In this document: in pieces, positions 1 to 14,318 of the stretch
How positions within the stretch are numbered: position 1 is the stretch's first letter
Layout of the letters: each line of letters opens with the position of its first letter
DNA from: a virus
Lineage: Duplodnaviria > Heunggongvirae > Uroviricota > Caudoviricetes
Virus record (IMG/VR): IMGVR_UViG_2778261064_000005
Span: 1-14,318 of that record
Direction: 5' to 3' (one strand)
DNA: 14,318 nt
The notes under the pieces: generated by a model
Database searches by the model: none
What the model was told of the DNA's origin: nothing
Seen by the model: the letters and a program-made list of their open reading frames with translations, nothing else
Made by a program: the position numbers and the translations under genes

Positions 1-1
1 G

Positions 2-31
2 TGTCCATTAAAAATGATGGACATTATTTTT
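2..31 (+). terminator. Candidate intrinsic terminator upstream of holin (tR'-like position)
   Basis: Inverted repeat tgtccat (2-8) / atggaca (17-23) with 8-nt loop, followed by T-rich ttattttt (24-31). Stem is AT-rich and weak. Position matches lambdoid tR' just before the lysis genes. Confidence 0.25.
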
Positions 32-94
32 GTAGAGCCGGAGGAAACAGACCAGACGGTTTAAATGAGCCGGTTACACGGAGACATACATCAG

Positions 95-301
95 ATGGAA
101 AAAATCACAACAGGTGTGTCATACACCACGTCAGCGGTGGGGACGGGATACTGGTTACTGCAGCTGCTGGACAAAGTCTCTCCGTCCCAGTGGGTGGCGA
201 TAGGTGTGCTGGGGAGTCTGCTGTTTGGCCTGTTGACGTATCTTACTAACCTGTATTTCAAAATCAGAGAGGACCGTCGTAAGGCGGCGCGGGGAGAGTA
301 A
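95..301 (+). CDS. S: Class II pinholin, phage 21 S21-like (68 aa); possible longer antiholin form from in-frame ATG at 65
   Basis: Translation [10 protein letters not shown]...[22 protein letters not shown] closely matches my recollection of the S21-68 pinholin: two TM segments, the first Gly/Ala-rich SAR-like, and a charged C-terminus. GGAGA lies 10 nt upstream of ATG 95. In-frame ATG at 65 adds 10 residues including Arg. Confidence 0.85.
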
Positions 302-305
302 AGCG

Positions 306-650
306 ATGAAGAAAAAATACGAACTGGTTGTTAAAGGGATAAATAATTACCCGGATAAGATTACTGTTAGTGTGGCACTGGAAATTGGTGGGTATCCGTC
401 ACTGTTGTTGCCAGATGTGGCGATTAGTCTTGACCGTACTGAAGGAGCCACGCTGGAGTTTTACGAAGCTGAGGCGAAAAAGCAGGCGAAGCAGTTTTTC
501 ATGGATGTTGCTGCCGGGTTATGTGAAGGGGATGGTCCGTTGCCGGAAAAGCGGCCCATCATTTTAGAGGCGCAGGATGTGTTGATAACCTACAGAGGAA
601 AACTACCGGGAATAATTACTGGTTCTCTGAAGACTCCACCGCTGGCCTGA
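306..650 (+). CDS. Hypothetical protein between holin and endolysin (possibly YdfR/DUF1327-like by synteny with K-12 Qin essQ-ydfR-rrrQ)
   Basis: 114-codon ORF starting 5 nt after the holin stop with GGGGAGAG upstream. No TM segment or catalytic motif recognised. Family assignment is by position only. Confidence 0.6.
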   Translation: MKKKYELVVKGINNYPDKITVSVALEIGGYPSLLLPDVAISLDRTEGATLEFYEAEAKKQAKQFFMDVAAGLCEGDGPLPEKRPIILEAQDVLITYRGKLPGIITGSLKTPPLA

Positions 651-700
651 AGACTTAACATATCCAGGGATTTGAAATCGATAAATCCTGATAAATATCC

Positions 701-1234
701 ATGAACGCAAAAATCAGATACGGCCTGTCGGCTGCCGTTCTGGCGCTGATTGGTGCAGGGGCGTCTGCGCCTGAAATCCTCGACCAGTTTCTGGATGAAA
801 AGGAAGGTAACCACACCACGGCATACCGTGATGGTGCGGGTATCTGGACCATCTGCCGAGGTGCCATCCTGGTGGATGGTAAACCTGTCGTTCCGGGCAT
901 GAAGTTGTCGAAGGAAAAATGCGACCGGGTTAACGCCATTGAGCGTGATAAGGCGCTGGCATGGGTGGAGAAAAACATCAAAGTGCCGCTGACCGAACCC
1001 CAGAAAGCGGGGATCGCGTCATTCTGTCCGTACAACATTGGTCCCGGTAAGTGTTTCCCGTCGACGTTTTACAGACGAATTAATGCAGGTGATCGAAAAG
1101 GTGCCTGCGAAGCGATTCGCTGGTGGATTAAGGACGGTGGCAGAGACTGCCGTATTCGTTCAAACAACTGTTACGGTCAGGTATCCCGTCGTGACCAGGA
1201 GAGCGCGCTGGCGTGCTGGGGAATCGACAGATAA
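701..1234 (+). CDS. R: SAR endolysin, T4-lysozyme-like muramidase (GH24), R21-type
   Basis: N-terminal Gly/Ala-rich weakly hydrophobic segment YGLSAAVLALIGAGASA (signal-anchor-release). Catalytic E-8aa-D-5aa-T spacing visible in EGNHTTAYRDGAGIWT. 177 aa, the size of R21/RrrQ-type enzymes. Confidence 0.9.
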   Translation: MNAKIRYGLSAAVLALIGAGASAPEILDQFLDEKEGNHTTAYRDGAGIWTICRGAILVDGKPVVPGMKLSKEKCDRVNAIERDKALAWVEKNIKVPLTEPQKAGIASFCPYNIGPGKCFPSTFYRRINAGDRKGACEAIRWWIKDGGRDCRIRSNNCYGQVSRRDQESALACWGIDR

Positions 1235-1504
1235 GAAGAATATTTTGCTGAAAAATGAGGTTTGCTTACATGGACGGATAACACGAAATCCTGCAAATTT
1301 GCAAAATGTAAGTGAATAAAGTCAAAACAGTTGTTTAACACTCAGGCACCGTAATGATGCCTTTGTCATTTCTGCGCATCTCACGCGCATCTCACAACAC
1401 AGAACCTTTCAGGATGACCCTTGAGGATACCGGTTTGGCTGTCGGTGCCTTTCTGTGGACTGGATTCCTGTGAGACAAGGTTCATCACTAAAAGGAAATA
1501 ACCG

Positions 1505-2074
1505 ATGAATATGATGGCCGTGCCGTTTCACGGCAACTCTCTTTATGTAGTTAACCATAATGGCGAACCATACGTTCCCATGAAACCTGTCGTTGCGGGG
1601 ATGGGGCTGGCCTGGCAATCACAGTTGGCTAAGTTAAGACAGCGTTTTGCGTCAACTATAACGGAAATCGTTATGGTTGCTGAGGATGGGAAACAACGCA
1701 ATATGGTGTCCATGCCACTTCGAAAACTTGCCGGCTGGCTACAAACCATTAATCCCAACAAAGTAAAACCCGAAATCCGCGATAAGGTCATCCGGTATCA
1801 GGAAGAGTGCGACGATGTTCTTTACGAGTACTGGACGAAGGGTTTTGTCGTTAATCCCCGTAAAATGAGCGTGATGGAAGAACTCAACCAGGCTTGTGCT
1901 GACATGAAACGGGATAAAAATATTGCCAGTGTGTTTGCTACCGGGCTGAATGAGTGGAAACAGGTTAAAGCCGCGCATGTATCAAAAATCCGTACGCTGG
2001 TAAATGAAGCGAATATGCTGATTGATTTTGTCCTGGCTGATACAGGCAAAGGGAAAATAACAAAGGCGGATTGA
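1505..2074 (+). CDS. AntA-domain antirepressor-like protein
   Basis: N-terminus MNMMAVPFHGNSLYVVNHNGEPYVPMKPVVAGMGLAWQSQ resembles the AntA/AntB N-terminal domain of phage antirepressors (from memory). Strong RBS AAAGGAAA 7 nt upstream of the ATG. 270-bp upstream spacer carries a palindrome. Confidence 0.7.
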   Translation: MNMMAVPFHGNSLYVVNHNGEPYVPMKPVVAGMGLAWQSQLAKLRQRFASTITEIVMVAEDGKQRNMVSMPLRKLAGWLQTINPNKVKPEIRDKVIRYQEECDDVLYEYWTKGFVVNPRKMSVMEELNQACADMKRDKNIASVFATGLNEWKQVKAAHVSKIRTLVNEANMLIDFVLADTGKGKITKAD

Positions 2075-2220
2075 TGGGGTGGCTAATGATATCAGATAAA
2101 CTCATAACGCTGGTGAAGAGCCTCTGTGTACTTGTCGGCATTTCATTTTTAGTCATGCTGGTTGCCATTTTCTTTTCCACCGCCTGGCGAGTCCTGACGT
2201 TATCGGGACTGGTGGGGTGA
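2074..2220 (+). CDS. Small (48 aa) predicted single-pass membrane protein, translationally coupled to upstream gene
   Basis: ATG overlaps the upstream TGA stop (TGATG). Product [48 protein letters not shown] has one clear hydrophobic helix. It fills the Ant-Rz gap and ends 8 nt before the Rz start. Not in the supplied ORF track (below size cutoff). Confidence 0.35.
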
Positions 2221-2227
2221 AAGAGAG

Positions 2228-2695
2228 ATGAACCGTGTTCTGTGTGTGGTGATTATTGTCCTGGCGGTTGGCTGTGGTGCGCTGTGGCTGGCAACAAACC
2301 ATTACCGTGACAACGCGCTCACCTACAAAGCGCAGCGCGATAAAAAAGCCAGAGAGCTGGAACAGGCGAATGCAACCATTACTGATATGCAGCAGCGCCA
2401 GCGTGATGTTGCTGCACTTGATGCCAGATACTCGAGGGAATTAGCCGATGCGAGAGCTGAAAATGAAACTCTGCGCGCTGATGTTGCCGCTGGTCGTAAG
2501 CGCCTGCGCATCAACGCCAACTGTCCCGGTACCGTGCGTGAAGCCACCGGCACCGCCCGCGTGGATAATGCAACCGGCCCCCAACTGGCAGACACCGTTA
2601 CACGGGATTATTTCACCCTCAGAGAGCGGCTGATGACGATGCAGAAGCAACTGGAAGGGGCACAGGACTATATCCGCACTCAGTGCCTGAACTAA
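2228..2695 (+). CDS. Rz: Rz i-spanin (inner-membrane spanin subunit)
   Basis: N-terminal TM, then coiled-coil. Strong similarity to lambda Rz as I recall it ([67 protein letters not shown]). SD AAGAGAG upstream. Confidence 0.9.
2448..2633 (+). CDS. Rz1: Rz1 o-spanin lipoprotein, embedded in +1 frame within Rz
   Basis: Entirely inside Rz in another frame. Lipobox LVVSAC, Pro-rich mature region ([30 protein letters not shown]) closely matching lambda Rz1 from memory. True start may be the internal Met at about 2463. Confidence 0.85.
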
Positions 2696-2887
2696 GTTTT
2701 GCTGATGCGCCGTATCGTCGCTGTATTCCCTCATTAACAGAGACCGCAGCCCGACAGGGAGACTCCTCTGCGCGAGTGTGCGGGGATAATCAAAAACGAT
2801 ACACACCGGGGTTTACCGCGTTAACGGAGCGCGGCGTTGTCCCCTCATAGTCGCCTGTCCGGTACGATGGTGGAAGAAACCGAACGT

Positions 2888-3088
2888 TCATTTCTCGTTA
2901 TTTGTCATGCTGGCCGTACGCAGATGCGTTGCATCTGTTGCCAGCCTTCTCCTGCAGGCTTCAATAACCCACGCTGAAAAGTTACTGGACCCTTTATGCT
3001 CAAGGGCGATGTTGATCTGTTCAATCATGTGATTGGGGAAACGGATATTGCGGGTTGTGGTTCTGCGGGTCCGGTTTTTCGATGACAT
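2888..3088 (-). CDS. ylcI: YlcI-like small protein (DUF3950 family)
   Basis: Minus-strand ORF MSSKNRTRRTTTRNIRFPNHMIEQINIALEHKGSSNFSAWVIEACRRRL... resembles E. coli DLP12 YlcI as I recall it. Start chosen at internal ATG (3088) because AAAGGAAA lies 8 nt upstream; the ORF-track start at 3148 lacks an RBS and would overlap the HNH gene. Confidence 0.65.
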   Translation of the reverse strand: MSSKNRTRRTTTRNIRFPNHMIEQINIALEHKGSSNFSAWVIEACRRRLATDATHLRTASMTNNEK

Positions 3089-3129
3089 ATTTATTTCCTT
3101 TACTGATTGCCATATGACGGGGATTTTAC

Positions 3130-3495
3130 ATGGCTGAGCTTCGTACACTCCAGAGCAGAATCAAAACTCTGAACACCCGACGGGTGAATATTCTGAAGGG
3201 GGAACAGCGTCGTGTCAGTGGCAGTGCACGTGTTTCCCTCAAGCGTCATATCTGGCTGAGGGATGCCGGACAGTGCTGTCTCTGTGGTCGTGTGGTTGAC
3301 CTCTGTGACAGTGAACTCGATCACCGAATTGCACTTCAGTTCGGTGGTGGTAATGAGGAGACGAATCTCTGGACGCTCTGTACCGAATGCCATCGACAAA
3401 AGTCTGCTCGTGAAGCGGCGGGTGGTATGCCGGACCCGACGCTGCCGGAGGTGTCCGGAGGTCATGGCAGGGCAGACGATATCATCGGACTGTGA
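3130..3495 (+). CDS. Phage HNH endonuclease (packaging-associated)
   Basis: HNH motif CCLCGRVVDLCDSELDHRIALQFGGGNEETNLWTLCTECHRQKS (Cys pairs, catalytic His, conserved Asn). Sits immediately upstream of terS/terL as in HK97-like cos phages. Confidence 0.85.
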   Translation: MAELRTLQSRIKTLNTRRVNILKGEQRRVSGSARVSLKRHIWLRDAGQCCLCGRVVDLCDSELDHRIALQFGGGNEETNLWTLCTECHRQKSAREAAGGMPDPTLPEVSGGHGRADDIIGL

Positions 3496-3503
3496 CCCGC
3501 CCC

Positions 3504-3514
3504 GGGGGGGGGGG
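3504..3514. repeat. Homopolymeric G11 tract (preceded by CCCGCCCC)
   Basis: Eleven consecutive G directly after the HNH stop codon, in the region where a cos site is expected. Confidence 0.9.
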
Positions 3515-3587
3515 ATCATCCGGCGAAAAAAACGATCGCTCCGGACACCGCGCCCCCTCTCATGCAGAGAAAAAATTCCCGTTTCAG

Positions 3588-3712
3588 GCCAGTTAACATG
3601 TTAACTGGCTGTTCGGCCTTTTTTCTGTTTTTATCTTTATAATTCAGTTTATTGCGTGGAAAAAATGTTAACCGACTTTTTCGGAAAATGTTAACCAGGC
3701 AGCAGTTAACAT
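3588..3712. promoter_or_regulatory. GTTAAC-motif array with perfect 22-bp palindrome; putative terminase small-subunit binding / cos-proximal region
   Basis: Perfect palindrome GCCAGTTAACATGTTAACTGGC (3588-3609). AAAATGTTAACC direct repeat at 3662-3673 and 3685-3696. CAGTTAACAT at 3594-3603 and 3703-3712. Five GTTAAC hexamers in about 125 bp, AT-rich spacer, lying between HNH and terS. Confidence 0.35.
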
Positions 3713-3786
3713 TCGGGGTATGCGCGGTGTGGGAAAACGGCCTGATGCATGCCCGGCTGAGAGAGTTTTGACCCCGGGAGGGCACT

Positions 3787-4350
3787 GTGCTGACGACGCA
3801 AAAACGAAAATTTGCGCTGGCGCTCATGTCCGGGAAAAACAAAACAGCGTCAGCCATTGCGGCAGGTTATTCGGCGAAGACGGCCAGAGTTAAAGGCTCG
3901 CAGCTGGCAAAAGATCCGGAGGTGCTTGCGTTTATAGCCCGTAAACAGGGCGAGACGGTGGAGGTGGATGAGGTTCCTGTTTACCGGCAGAAAAAATCAG
4001 AGCAGGAGGATAAACCCCGTCGCCGTGAGGCGGCTGCAATACCACAGCAGGACGAAACAAATCCGGAGATGCCACCGCCCGTGGTGATATCTCCTAGTAT
4101 TGATTACATGGAAGACGGTCTTCCAGATCCGGTAAAAGCAATGGGGAGGATCCTGGTGGAAAACCTGATAATTGACCCGAAACTGGCACTGGATGCGGCC
4201 TGGCGACTGGCGCAGTTCACACACTATAAAAAAGGCGATGCTGGTAAAAAATCGGCAAAAGGTGACGCGGCGAAAAAAGCGGCTAACCGTTTTGCGGTGC
4301 CACCACCACCCCGACTGGTGGTGAATAATGATAATGAGGGCAACGGATGA
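3787..4350 (+). CDS. terS: Terminase small subunit (P27/Terminase_2-like)
   Basis: GTG start with GGGAGGG upstream. N-terminus LTTQKRKFALALMSGKNKTASAIAAGYSAKTA matches the small-terminase N-terminal HTH region. Acidic/Pro-rich linker follows. Stop overlaps terL start (ATGA). Confidence 0.85.
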   Translation: MLTTQKRKFALALMSGKNKTASAIAAGYSAKTARVKGSQLAKDPEVLAFIARKQGETVEVDEVPVYRQKKSEQEDKPRRREAAAIPQQDETNPEMPPPVVISPSIDYMEDGLPDPVKAMGRILVENLIIDPKLALDAAWRLAQFTHYKKGDAGKKSAKGDAAKKAANRFAVPPPPRLVVNNDNEGNG

Positions 4351-6008
4351 TACCTGTGTGGAGCACGGCCTGCCCGGACTGGGCAGAGCGCCTGAAAAAG
4401 GGGCTGTCGATTATTCCGTCTCCGATTTACCCGGAGCAGGCCGCACATGCCCTGGCGATTTTTAAACAACTGCGGATTGTGGATGCACCGGGCAGCCCGA
4501 CGTTCGGTGAGTCCTGTGCACAGTGGGTGTTTGACCTGGTGGCGGCTCTGTTTGGCTCCTACGATGCGCAGACCGGTGTCCGCCATATCAAGGAAGTGTT
4601 CATTCTGATACCCAAAAAAAACAGCAAGTCCACACTGGCCGCCGGGATCATGATGACGGCGCTGTTACTGAACTGGCGGCAGGCGGCGGGTTACACGATT
4701 CTGGCCCCGACTGTGGAGGTGGCAGCCAACGCCTTCAATCCTGCCAGGGATATGGTACGACGGGACGATGATCTGGATGACCTCTGCCAGGTACAGACCC
4801 ATATCCGGACCATCACCCACAGGGTGACAGACACCACCCTGAAGGTGGTGGCAGCCGATCCGAATACGGTGTCCGGTATCAAGTCCGTGGGTACGCTGAT
4901 TGATGAGTTGTGGCTGTTTGGCAAGCAGTGCAAGGCGGAGGACATGTTACGTGAAGCCATAGGCGGCCTTGCCTCCCGCCCGGAAGGGTTTGTGGTGTAT
5001 ACGACCACCCAGTCGAATGAACCGCCCGCCGGGGTGTTCAGACAGAAACTGCAGTACGCCCGGGATGTGCGCGACGGCAAAATTCATGATCCGCACTTTC
5101 TGCCGGTGATATTTGAACACCCTCCTGAAATGGTGGAAAGCGGGGCTCACTTGCTGATGGAAAACCTCGCCATGGTCAATCCGAATCTCGGCTATTCGGT
5201 GGATGAGGCCTTTCTGTACCGGGAGTACCGTAAAGCCCGGGAGGCTGGTGAGGAAGCATTTCGTGGCTTCATGTCAAAACACGCCAATGTGGAAATTGGC
5301 CTTGCCCTGCGTTCTGACCGCTGGGCGGGCGCGGATTTCTGGGAGCAGCAGGGCAGGCGCGTCAGCCTGGAAGATATCCTGCAGCGCGCTGATGTGGTGA
5401 CGGTGGGGATTGACGGCGGGGGCCTGGATGATCTGCTGGGAATGTACGTGATTGGTCGTGATCGGGAGACCCGCGAATGGTTAGGCTGGGGCCATGCCTG
5501 GGCGCATGAAACCGCGGTGGTCCGACGGAAGAGTGAGGCATCCCGGTTTCAGGATTTTGTGGCCTGTGGAGACATGACGATTGTCCGTCGGGTCGGGGAT
5601 GACACGGCGGAAGTGGCGGAGTATGTGCGTCGTATTCATGAGGCTGAGTTACTGGATCATATCGGTATTGACCCGTCAGGTGTGGGGCAGATTCTGGATT
5701 CACTGGCGGAAGCCGGGATCCCCGACGGAATTGTTGTGGGGATAAGCCAGGGCTGGAAGCTGGGCGGGGCCATCAAAACCACCGAACGCAAACTGGCTGA
5801 AGGGGTGCTGGTGCATGGTGGCCAGCCACTGATGGCCTGGTGCGTTGGCAATGCCCGGGTGGAGCCCAGAGGTAACGCCATCCTTATTACCAAACAGGCC
5901 AGCGGACGGGGGAAAATCGACCCGCTGATGGCGCTTTTCAATGCGGTATCCCTGATGTCCCTGAATCCGGAGCCCAAAAAGAAAGAATATGCGGTTTTTT
6001 TCATATAA
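4347..6008 (+). CDS. terL: Terminase large subunit (ATPase/nuclease)
   Basis: 553 aa. Translationally coupled to terS. P-loop-like ILIPKKNSKST, then a C-terminal nuclease-type region. Size and position typical of HK97-like TerL. Confidence 0.9.
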   Translation: MIPVWSTACPDWAERLKKGLSIIPSPIYPEQAAHALAIFKQLRIVDAPGSPTFGESCAQWVFDLVAALFGSYDAQTGVRHIKEVFILIPKKNSKSTLAAGIMMTALLLNWRQAAGYTILAPTVEVAANAFNPARDMVRRDDDLDDLCQVQTHIRTITHRVTDTTLKVVAADPNTVSGIKSVGTLIDELWLFGKQCKAEDMLREAIGGLASRPEGFVVYTTTQSNEPPAGVFRQKLQYARDVRDGKIHDPHFLPVIFEHPPEMVESGAHLLMENLAMVNPNLGYSVDEAFLYREYRKAREAGEEAFRGFMSKHANVEIGLALRSDRWAGADFWEQQGRRVSLEDILQRADVVTVGIDGGGLDDLLGMYVIGRDRETREWLGWGHAWAHETAVVRRKSEASRFQDFVACGDMTIVRRVGDDTAEVAEYVRRIHEAELLDHIGIDPSGVGQILDSLAEAGIPDGIVVGISQGWKLGGAIKTTERKLAEGVLVHGGQPLMAWCVGNARVEPRGNAILITKQASGRGKIDPLMALFNAVSLMSLNPEPKKKEYAVFFI

Positions 6009-6034
6009 CCCTGTTCACCCTGTAACCATCATGG

Positions 6035-6054
6035 ACCGCTGCGGCGGTTTTTTT
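6035..6054 (+). terminator. Weak terminator-like hairpin + T-run between terL and capsid ORF
   Basis: accgc-tgcg-gcggt stem-loop (6035-6048) followed by T7 (6048-6054), then AGGAGG and GTG start of the next gene. Confidence 0.3.
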
Positions 6055-6071
6055 ATTTTCAGGAGGCTGAT

Positions 6072-14247: not shown

Positions 14248-14318
14248 CTTCGCGTTTTTTTCTGGGCTAATTGACGCGCAATTCCGGGCGGGGAGCGCGC
14301 AACCCAAAAGCCCAGAAT

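Follow-up and report, generated by a model that had tools for sequence, protein, structure and literature searches.

A lysis cassette of Shiga toxin phage type with exchangeable accessory genes and a putative structured RNA leader

Introduction

In phage 21 the three lysis genes are contiguous, and the holin gene S has a dual start. The locus described here carries three inserts among its lysis genes and a native S without the dual start. It lies at positions 65-2695 of a 14,318-nucleotide (nt) stretch of Caudoviricetes DNA (IMG/VR record IMGVR_UViG_2778261064_000005, positions 1 to 14,318), referred to below as the window. An initial annotation, made from the sequence, described a phage-21-type lysis cassette in which a 114-amino-acid (aa) open reading frame (ORF) separates S from the endolysin gene R, and an 'AntA-like' gene and a 48-aa membrane ORF separate R from the spanin gene Rz. 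The extra genes were offered as candidate lysis-timing modulators or morons.

Judged by its homologies, the region is the lysis module of a lambdoid, Shiga toxin (Stx)-phage-type Escherichia coli prophage. The cassette with its three extra genes is an already known and annotated object. Its uncatalogued parts are a terminator-plus-hairpin leader in front of one of the extra genes, which encodes 189 aa, and the tie, across genera, of this two-domain Bro-network gene to lysis cassettes. Genes of the Bro network (Ant, Rha, KilA and Bro) rank with the most common unexplained genes that temperate phages and satellites carry. We consider it probable that the locus consists of a lysis module and three independently exchangeable cargo modules placed at two junctions, one with an RNA leader.

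Results and Discussion

Exchange of genes within a known cassette

The cassette ORFs are all on the plus strand, at or near the positions first given to them, and each was assigned to a curated family (Table 1), including the three interrupting ORFs, all of which are present. The order is S, ydfR, R, a 270-nt gap, the 189-aa gene, the 48-aa ORF and Rz/Rz1. Annotated prophage and phage records, among them the lysis regions of Stx phages and enterohaemorrhagic E. coli (EHEC) (BP-4795 ORF46-51, Sakai Sp9/Sp10 and H-19B), match this arrangement at 96-100% nucleotide identity, and the ORF pattern is therefore not a product of chance. The UTAK-6 locus is 100% identical to the window cassette and is annotated with the same gene order. 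At least 80% of window positions 1-3500 was found in 555 of 5,426 complete E. coli genomes, megablast retrieved the region from 413 phage records, and EHEC genomes have up to 25 places each that match the query.

The initial annotation had proposed a synteny comparison with Stx-phage lysis regions and had named an S-ydfR-R order in the Qin prophage of E. coli K-12. BP-4795, Sp9/Sp10 and UTAK-6 share the gene order of the window, and the Qin order was borne out. In the window and in regions of the BP-4795/Sp9/Sp10 type, DUF3950, HNH and terminase genes come after Rz/Rz1. Stx2 regions of the Sakai Sp5/VT2-Sakai/933W type share S, R, the 270-nt gap with its leader, the 189-aa gene, the 48-aa ORF and Rz/Rz1, but have no ydfR between S and R, and the cassette is followed by bor rather than DUF3950/HNH. 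Qin (essQ-ydfR-rrrQ-rzpQ) shares the holin-YdfR-endolysin order and a related YdfR N-domain; it differs in a YdfR of 103 aa with another C-terminus, in having no cargo between R and the spanin, and in a DUF2514-type spanin.

All of 80 IMG/VR loci with a YdfR at least 96% identical keep the S-YdfR-R order, as does Qin, and the R-Rz spacer of these loci falls into at least six size classes. Spacers of ~300 nt hold one tiny membrane ORF, those of 430-440 and 490 nt hold two, and those of 645 nt hold four; the 996-nt class is that of the window, and the 1,200-nt class has a KilAC-type "ant" gene and two tiny membrane ORFs. Different tiny membrane ORFs thus occupy the place of the 48-aa ORF before Rz in the other classes. 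Given these spacer classes, and Sakai Sp5, where the 189-aa gene and the 48-aa ORF are present and ydfR is absent, both junctions behave as cargo sites, and in these sequence comparisons the three extras behave as exchangeable cargo rather than as fixed lysis components. All three modules would lie inside a Q-dependent late operon. The part of the moron idea, in the sense of Hendrix, that stands is the presence/absence polymorphism among collinear phages. The part that does not is a promoter of their own together with a downstream terminator: a consensus scan of 1235-1504 gave no sigma-70 promoter, which is weak evidence, and the terminator-like hairpin sits upstream, not downstream, of the 189-aa gene.

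The accessory ORFs could instead modulate the timing or efficiency of lysis together with the holin, endolysin or spanins, for instance as an antiholin, as a spanin partner or, in the case of YdfR, by tuning S/R. The tight spacing of the cassette would suit such a role: ydfR begins 4 nt after the S stop codon, the 189-aa gene and the 48-aa ORF share bases of their stop and start codons (TGATG), and the 48-aa ORF ends 7 nt before the Rz ATG. So would the tiny membrane ORF found before Rz in every spacer class, the retention of the 189-aa gene at its place between endolysin and spanin in genera whose lysis proteins are unrelated, and a genetic screen which, as cited in PMC13232886, flagged ydfR for envelope integrity. 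On the other side, every extra gene comes and goes among near-identical cassettes, and neither YdfR nor the 189-aa protein has a strongly hydrophobic segment, the latter having a DNA-binding-like fold. Family, sequence and fold searches found no likeness to a known antiholin or lysis regulator, and we regard lysis modulation as an unlikely explanation of the extra genes.

The membrane character first proposed for the 48-aa ORF was upheld by its strongly hydrophobic core (hydropathy maximum 2.82) and by its match to phrog_4906; a Pfam search gave no match. The ORF occurs in 276 phage records. Among 13 nucleotide variants the length is kept in 12 and a hydrophobic core is kept, and codons with a single difference (343 synonymous and 412 non-synonymous) point to moderate purifying selection. 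A spanin- or membrane-linked role is possible. As cargo, the 44-48-aa protein would be one of several alternative tiny membrane proteins encoded before Rz, its ORF abutting the Rz ribosome-binding site. In other genera no conserved small-ORF partner was found after the 189-aa gene: Salmonella has a lipoprotein there, and elsewhere the ORFs are soluble.

A probable structured leader before the 189-aa gene

Upstream of the 189-aa gene there is always a stretch of 170-270 nt that holds no conserved ORF. In six genera this segment follows a common plan, beginning with an intrinsic terminator and a short hairpin; a CA-rich stretch comes next, and then a long imperfect hairpin whose base pairs with the Shine-Dalgarno (SD) sequence. 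In the window, the long imperfect hairpin lies at ~1405-1495, behind a CA-rich flank, and its base pairs CCUUU (1405-1409) with an A-rich tract and the SD GG (1494-1495).

A covariance model of this leader, R1, was built from six seeds and detected 37 copies in 84 loci, one in the window and 36 at further sites. A second set was defined by an exact 15-mer of the main helix, present in at least 120 IMG/VR stretches, and the 80 loci used from it gave 83 more matches. Nearly all R1 matches end exactly at a start codon (ATG or GTG in the first set), and all but one weak match of the first set are on the coding strand. In the R1 alignment 92% of cells are paired, compared with 78.6% in shuffles and 36-54% in slid registers, and 17 of 21 pairs have double changes. 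The basal helix is not part of the R1 model; with it included, 87.6% is paired and compensatory changes are seen in 26 of 30 pairs. Pairing was again good among the 83 IMG/VR matches. Folding of single sequences reproduces the hairpin, with the SD GG paired to the 5' base in 31 of 34 and z-scores mostly from -2.7 to -5.5. A strict terminator hairpin lies within 110 nt upstream of the leader at 85 of 107 unique sites, compared with 0 of 107 shuffles; the terminator of the window is a degenerate copy of it. On this evidence the RNA structure is very likely real and under selection.

The leader is not restricted to one gene family. The genes behind it are Rha (26 of 69 unique), KilA-N (17), ORF11CD3 proteins (16), HNH_3 (10, some with AP2), P63C, P22_AR_N, TerB-like, Bro-N and KilAC. 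No copy is found in R-Rz spacers without an ant-type gene. The UTAK-6 sequence (L002) has a second copy (2847-2964, 35 bits) directly upstream of a TerB-family gene. This TerB-family gene lies after the tRNA-Ile/Arg/Arg cluster and before the holin gene, and a match to Rfam STnc100 is present at 3562-3739 of the same sequence. Several IMG/VR contigs (L250, L204, L205 and L193 among others) carry two or three leader copies, each before a different Bro-network gene, within a few kb.

The leader might also be conserved as DNA rather than RNA, as a recombination linker or as the boundary of a mobile cassette for Bro-network and homing-endonuclease-like genes. It does mark the 5' boundary of interchangeable cargo, including HNH_3/AP2 nuclease genes, and recombination of lambdoid mosaics probably takes place at conserved junctions. 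Bro-network genes have been noted to swap domains and may be mobilised (PMC10111431). A function at the DNA level is opposed by the compensatory double changes, which hold pairing at most helix positions, and by the loss of pairing in slid registers. It is also opposed by the strand and end point of the matches, and by divergent sequences that, taken alone, fold to the same hairpin. We give this explanation little probability.

As a structured RNA, the leader would lower or gate translation of the 189-aa gene, and a role in keeping the translation of these regulators low or conditional is slightly favoured. The R-Rz junction would then hold a self-contained Bro-network cassette, made up of the terminator-like hairpin, the ~120-nt SD-pairing leader and the gene for P22_AR_N and ORF11CD3. 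Several points weigh against this. The leader copy in the window is the weakest tested (z -1.15, with a C.U mismatch in the main helix), and its terminator copy fails the strict test. Plain alignment with MAFFT followed by RNAalifold gave no consensus for 26 leaders, because indels shift the register, and the covariation counts rest on model-fitted alignments. In silico, pairing of the SD region is also common for other genes of the window, and the mean pairing probability does not set the 189-aa gene apart from them, so that gating is a putative role.

Within Rfam 15 no family, including sar, C4 and isrK, matched the window at E <= 1 or positions 1200-1560 at E <= 10, and six related loci had no IsrK, C4 or sar match at the gathering score. 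The nearest functional analogue is the IsrK-orf45-anrP locus of Salmonella prophage Gifsy-1, which likewise has a terminator, a 272-nt gap and a 187-aa antirepressor-like gene in a lambdoid late region. There, IsrK ends at an intrinsic terminator, the read-through isrK-orf45-anrP mRNA is translationally inactive through its structure, and short IsrK activates this mRNA in trans (PMC4825925). The anrP locus follows Q, whereas the 189-aa gene follows the endolysin gene. Homology of the gap with isrK-orf45 was considered and rejected, as R1 had no match in Gifsy-1, AnrP is not homologous to the 189-aa protein and the DNA alignment is unconvincing; we therefore compare the two as analogues and not as members of one family.

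Other ant and Bro-network genes are silenced post-transcriptionally by RNA pairing at the ribosome-binding site, through sar RNA in P22 and C4/CI RNA in P1, P7 and P4. These systems employ a separate or processed antisense RNA, whereas the leader in the window is an intramolecular hairpin. P22 sar and P1 C4 are further analogues. The P4 and C4 systems are summarised in PMC10111431.

Other readings of the gap fared poorly. A 39-aa ORF at 1354-1473, considered as a leader peptide, is not conserved and has an early stop in the KilAC-type spacer. A duplex search of 1235-1386 against the leader gave nothing better than shuffles. The CA-rich CACAACACA with the hairpin was compared with the anti-GcvB small RNAs AgvB and AsxR; those lie downstream of PR' near stx and differ in sequence, and the R-ant gap of Sp5 contains no peak from the Hfq crosslinking and cDNA analysis (Hfq-CRAC) of Tree et al. 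The CACAACACA element itself (1393-1401), in the single-stranded flank 5' of the leader hairpin, resembles the C/A-rich elements targeted by GcvB, and it could act as a ribosome standby or enhancer site. CA-rich flanks are also present at the leader in other genera. Further upstream, the first ~90 nt after R are common to all R-Rz spacer classes of this E. coli lineage. This conserved segment contains a perfect 12-bp palindrome, TGCAAATTTGCA, at 1292-1303, which is maybe due to chance, since other spacer classes hold an imperfect version, TGCGAACTGGCA.

A two-domain Bro-network protein tied to lysis genes

The 189-aa protein matches P22_AR_N over residues 5-113 (PF10547, 1.4e-45), ORF11CD3 (PF10549, 5.5e-06) and phrog_524, 'anti-repressor Ant'. 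The label 'AntA-like' did not hold, as a Pfam search at E <= 0.01 returned these two domains only and no AntA domain (PF08346). Both are among the ten Bro-network hidden Markov models listed in PMC10111431. P22_AR_C is absent and the C-terminal half is ORF11CD3. Rather than a truncated Ant, the protein is a member of a well-conserved family of 187-192 aa that carries both domains, with 2,581 matches across Enterobacterales. Because its N-domain has an APSES/KilA-N/Dachshund-like DNA-binding fold, we take it as a putative DNA-binding regulator and not as a proven antirepressor; the gene is usually annotated 'antirepressor', an activity that is putative.

A true antirepressor, made late, might inactivate the repressors of co-resident lambdoid prophages, leading to cross-induction, or might block the re-establishment of repression. 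This is suggested by the homology to P22_AR_N and the phrog_524 assignment, and EHEC genomes hold many lambdoid prophages. Trans-acting antirepressors are reported from Gifsy phages (PMC3121763), Phi24B Ant aids induction (PMC3064807), and Gifsy-1 AnrP is similarly gated by an RNA leader. However, only the N-terminal domain is common to the 189-aa protein and P22 Ant, and the domain it lacks, P22_AR_C, is the conserved part that links P22 Ant with the functional Ant of Phi24B. The latter is a different gene that resembles P22 Ant in its C-terminal domain (PMC3064807) and lies in the early region, outside the lysis cassette. With AnrP not homologous and the fold matching DNA-binding domains, antirepressor activity seems improbable.

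The genomic position of the gene is more regular than a cargo module would lead one to expect. Its place in Photorhabdus, Hamiltonella, Salmonella, Serratia and Proteus is immediately behind the endolysin gene or after Rz, next to unrelated lysis families (holin_3_1, holin_3_3, holin_8/3_7 or P21; lysozyme, GH108 or unassigned; Rz or DUF2570/LysC). One genome per species was searched with a panel of lysis proteins of limited sensitivity. Where a homologue with both domains was present in full length and the upstream sequence reached at least 1 kb, 16 of 19 loci had lysis genes within 2.6 kb; of the loci with the N-domain alone, only 3-4 of ~50 did. This placement between endolysin and spanin across genera is an unexplained regularity of a Bro-network architecture. 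The view of the 189-aa gene as mere cargo leaves its strict position unexplained, and a role linked to lysis may apply.

More tentatively, with rather less than even probability, the gap could represent an uncatalogued and widespread cis-acting RNA of temperate phages, mostly of Enterobacterales, in which a terminator and an SD-sequestering hairpin insulate or gate Bro-network and TerB-like genes of late operons. Its P22_AR_N and ORF11CD3 member would be tied to lysis and have a conserved late-stage function (with, for example, release by RNase III or in trans, compare IsrK), to which the tie with lysis cassettes irrespective of lysis family points. If this is true, the common leader offers a handle on the timing and mode of Bro-network gene expression, and extends the IsrK/C4/sar theme, in which RNA gates antirepressor-like genes.

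YdfR at the S-R junction

The 114-aa ORF encodes a YdfR-family protein. Homologues at the same position in related phages, whose absence would have spoken against the initial annotation, were confirmed in Stx-type phages and in Qin. In the phage collection YdfR occurs in 101 records, exclusively of Escherichia or Stx phages, and the protein homologues bear names from E. coli, Shigella and E. albertii. The family has a short version (114-116 aa) and a long one (176-183 aa); residues 1 to ~112 are common to both, and the long version has an additional helical C-terminal extension (protein matches P0006, P0013, P0010 and P0068). A few database entries are S-YdfR fusions with both PF04971 and PF07041, probably as a result of frameshifts or gene-calling artefacts. 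In an AlphaFold2 model, residues 1-73 form a beta-beta-beta-alpha fold with block-mean pLDDT (predicted local distance difference test) values of 72-89, and the C-terminal 40 residues are predicted to be disordered. Foldseek gave no relative in the PDB below E = 0.27, and a sequence search of the PDB gave none.

Residues 1-74 are 46% identical to K-12 YdfR. According to two-hybrid and co-purification assays, residues 1-72 of the K-12 protein bind RNase E at its N-terminal half (PMC13232886, 2026). RNA co-purifies with K-12 YdfR, and its overproduction altered few transcripts (PMC13232886). The binding, and the identity over that domain, make a role with RNase E or RNA the most likely one: YdfR would be a small cytoplasmic late phage protein that binds RNase E, in its catalytic half, and perhaps RNA as well. 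Going by homology, we hold this leading candidate to be possible, at well below even probability. The link to RNase E comes from an overproduced homologue of 46% identity with little effect on the transcriptome, which counts against it. With the report on RNase E, the idea of a late phage gene that modulates RNA decay becomes testable for Stx phages, in which the fate of late transcripts also affects toxin output.

The start of the cassette and the state of this copy

The window begins with the end of an insertion sequence (IS) of the IS66 family, with the start of its tnpA at ~24 on the minus strand. Neither the IS end nor the structured leader in the 270-nt gap figured in the initial annotation. 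The IS gives way to phage DNA at 77/78, 17 nt before the holin ATG; this junction sets the window apart from the Stx-phage/EHEC regions, and the match to close relatives of the cassette begins only at base 78 or 92. The P21-type holin of the initial annotation exists, but its 78-aa ORF (65-301) starts in the last 13 nt of the IS; the native protein has 68 aa. The PF04971 match covers residues 12-74 of the 78-aa ORF, in whose translation two hydrophobic stretches are readable, and the NCBI prokaryotic annotation pipeline (PGAP) calls the 100%-identical UTAK-6 holin in the 68-aa form, equivalent to 95-301. Native S has no dual-start motif, since the upstream start codon of BP-4795 (ATG TAC CAG ATG) is ATA in the lineage of the window (ATA CAT CAG ATG at 86-97), and the UTAK-6 copy lacks the motif as well. 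The sole upstream in-frame ATG of S, at position 65, sits within the IS end.

The IS separates the lysis cassette from upstream DNA, presumably the late promoter region. It may uncouple this copy from the late promoter, a further point against the reading of the locus as a lysis module with cargo. One could go further and read the copy as a decaying, non-functional prophage remnant whose accessory ORFs have no current role. The IS abuts the holin ribosome-binding site, the dual-start codon is lost, ~170 nt are missing after Rz relative to Sp9/Sp10, and the identical UTAK-6 prophage has a frameshift in its portal gene. Yet all cassette ORFs are intact and 100% identical in several genomes, and the gene families are under purifying selection. 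Decay would moreover concern a single copy and not the conserved design, and we think it a rather remote explanation of the extra genes.

Lysis proteins and further features of the region

Residues 9-174 of R align with PDB entries 4ZPU (RrrD) and 3HDE, which we take to be the signal-anchor-release (SAR) endolysin of phage 21, and the homology is full-length. The N-terminal segment of R, YGLSAAVLALIGAGASA, is Gly/Ala-rich, weakly hydrophobic and SAR-like, and release from the membrane is predicted. In the translation, E35, D44 and T50 have the Glu-8aa-Asp-5aa-Thr spacing of T4-lysozyme-like SAR endolysins. Rz has a membrane segment, and Rz1, with M at 2463 as its likely start, has the lipobox VSAC in that reading, as expected for a lipoprotein; Rz1 is annotated likewise in Sakai Sp5 and Sp9. 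Taken together, these features make 'phage-21-type' a fair label, and the initial reading was sound in this respect. The PF04971 holin, the endolysin homology, the SAR-like N-terminus and the embedded spanins are all shared with S21/R21/Rz21. From family membership, the pinholin S would depolarise the inner membrane, R would then be freed from the membrane and degrade the wall, and Rz/Rz1 would disrupt the outer membrane. No recognisable SD sequence was seen for R in window positions 681-700, where AUAAAUCCUGAUAAAUAUCC precedes the AUG.

Table 1. Features of the lysis cassette and its upstream flank (window coordinates)
Feature	Position	Strand	Evidence
End of IS66-family (ISCro1-like) element	1..77	-	identical to IS end in E. 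coli EL361, tnpA annotated there
Holin S, 68 aa, class II P21 type (pinholin family)	95..301	+	PF04971 'P21 holin S' 1.4e-32
YdfR-family (DUF1327) protein, 114 aa	306..650	+	PF07041 3.1e-45; phrog_406
SAR-type endolysin R, 177 aa	701..1234	+	PF00959 2.2e-24
Non-coding segment after R	1235..1344	+	alignment of 11 spacers
Terminator-like hairpin GGCACC-GTAAT-GATGCC (one mismatch), then U-rich tract	1345..1373	+	
Structured 5' leader of the 189-aa gene	1387..1504	+	covariance model R1 match 1387-1510, 108 bits
Bro-network protein, 189 aa, P22_AR_N + ORF11CD3 helical domain	1505..2074	+	PF10547, PF10549
Small single-pass membrane protein, 48 aa (44 aa from ATG 2086)	2074..2220	+	phrog_4906 1.5e-30
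i-spanin Rz, 155 aa, N-terminal transmembrane segment	2228..2695	+	PF03245 1.3e-46; phrog_13
o-spanin Rz1, embedded in +1 frame of Rz	2448..2633	+	PF06085 9.3e-19

Downstream of the cassette, Sp9, Sp10 and BP-4795 have, between Rz and the DUF3950 gene, ~170 nt that are absent from the window at ~2880-2960 (compared with sequences L086 and L087). The DUF3950 (YlcI/YnfO) gene is annotated with 66 aa in the identical UTAK-6 locus, as against 75 aa. On the minus strand, window positions ~2769-2817 are near-identical in sequence to the Hfq-CRAC peaks EcOnc11 (Sp10) and EcOnc12 (Sp9) (Tree et al. 2014, Table S2), and this stretch may give rise to a small RNA derived from the 3' untranslated region or terminator of the convergent DUF3950 gene.

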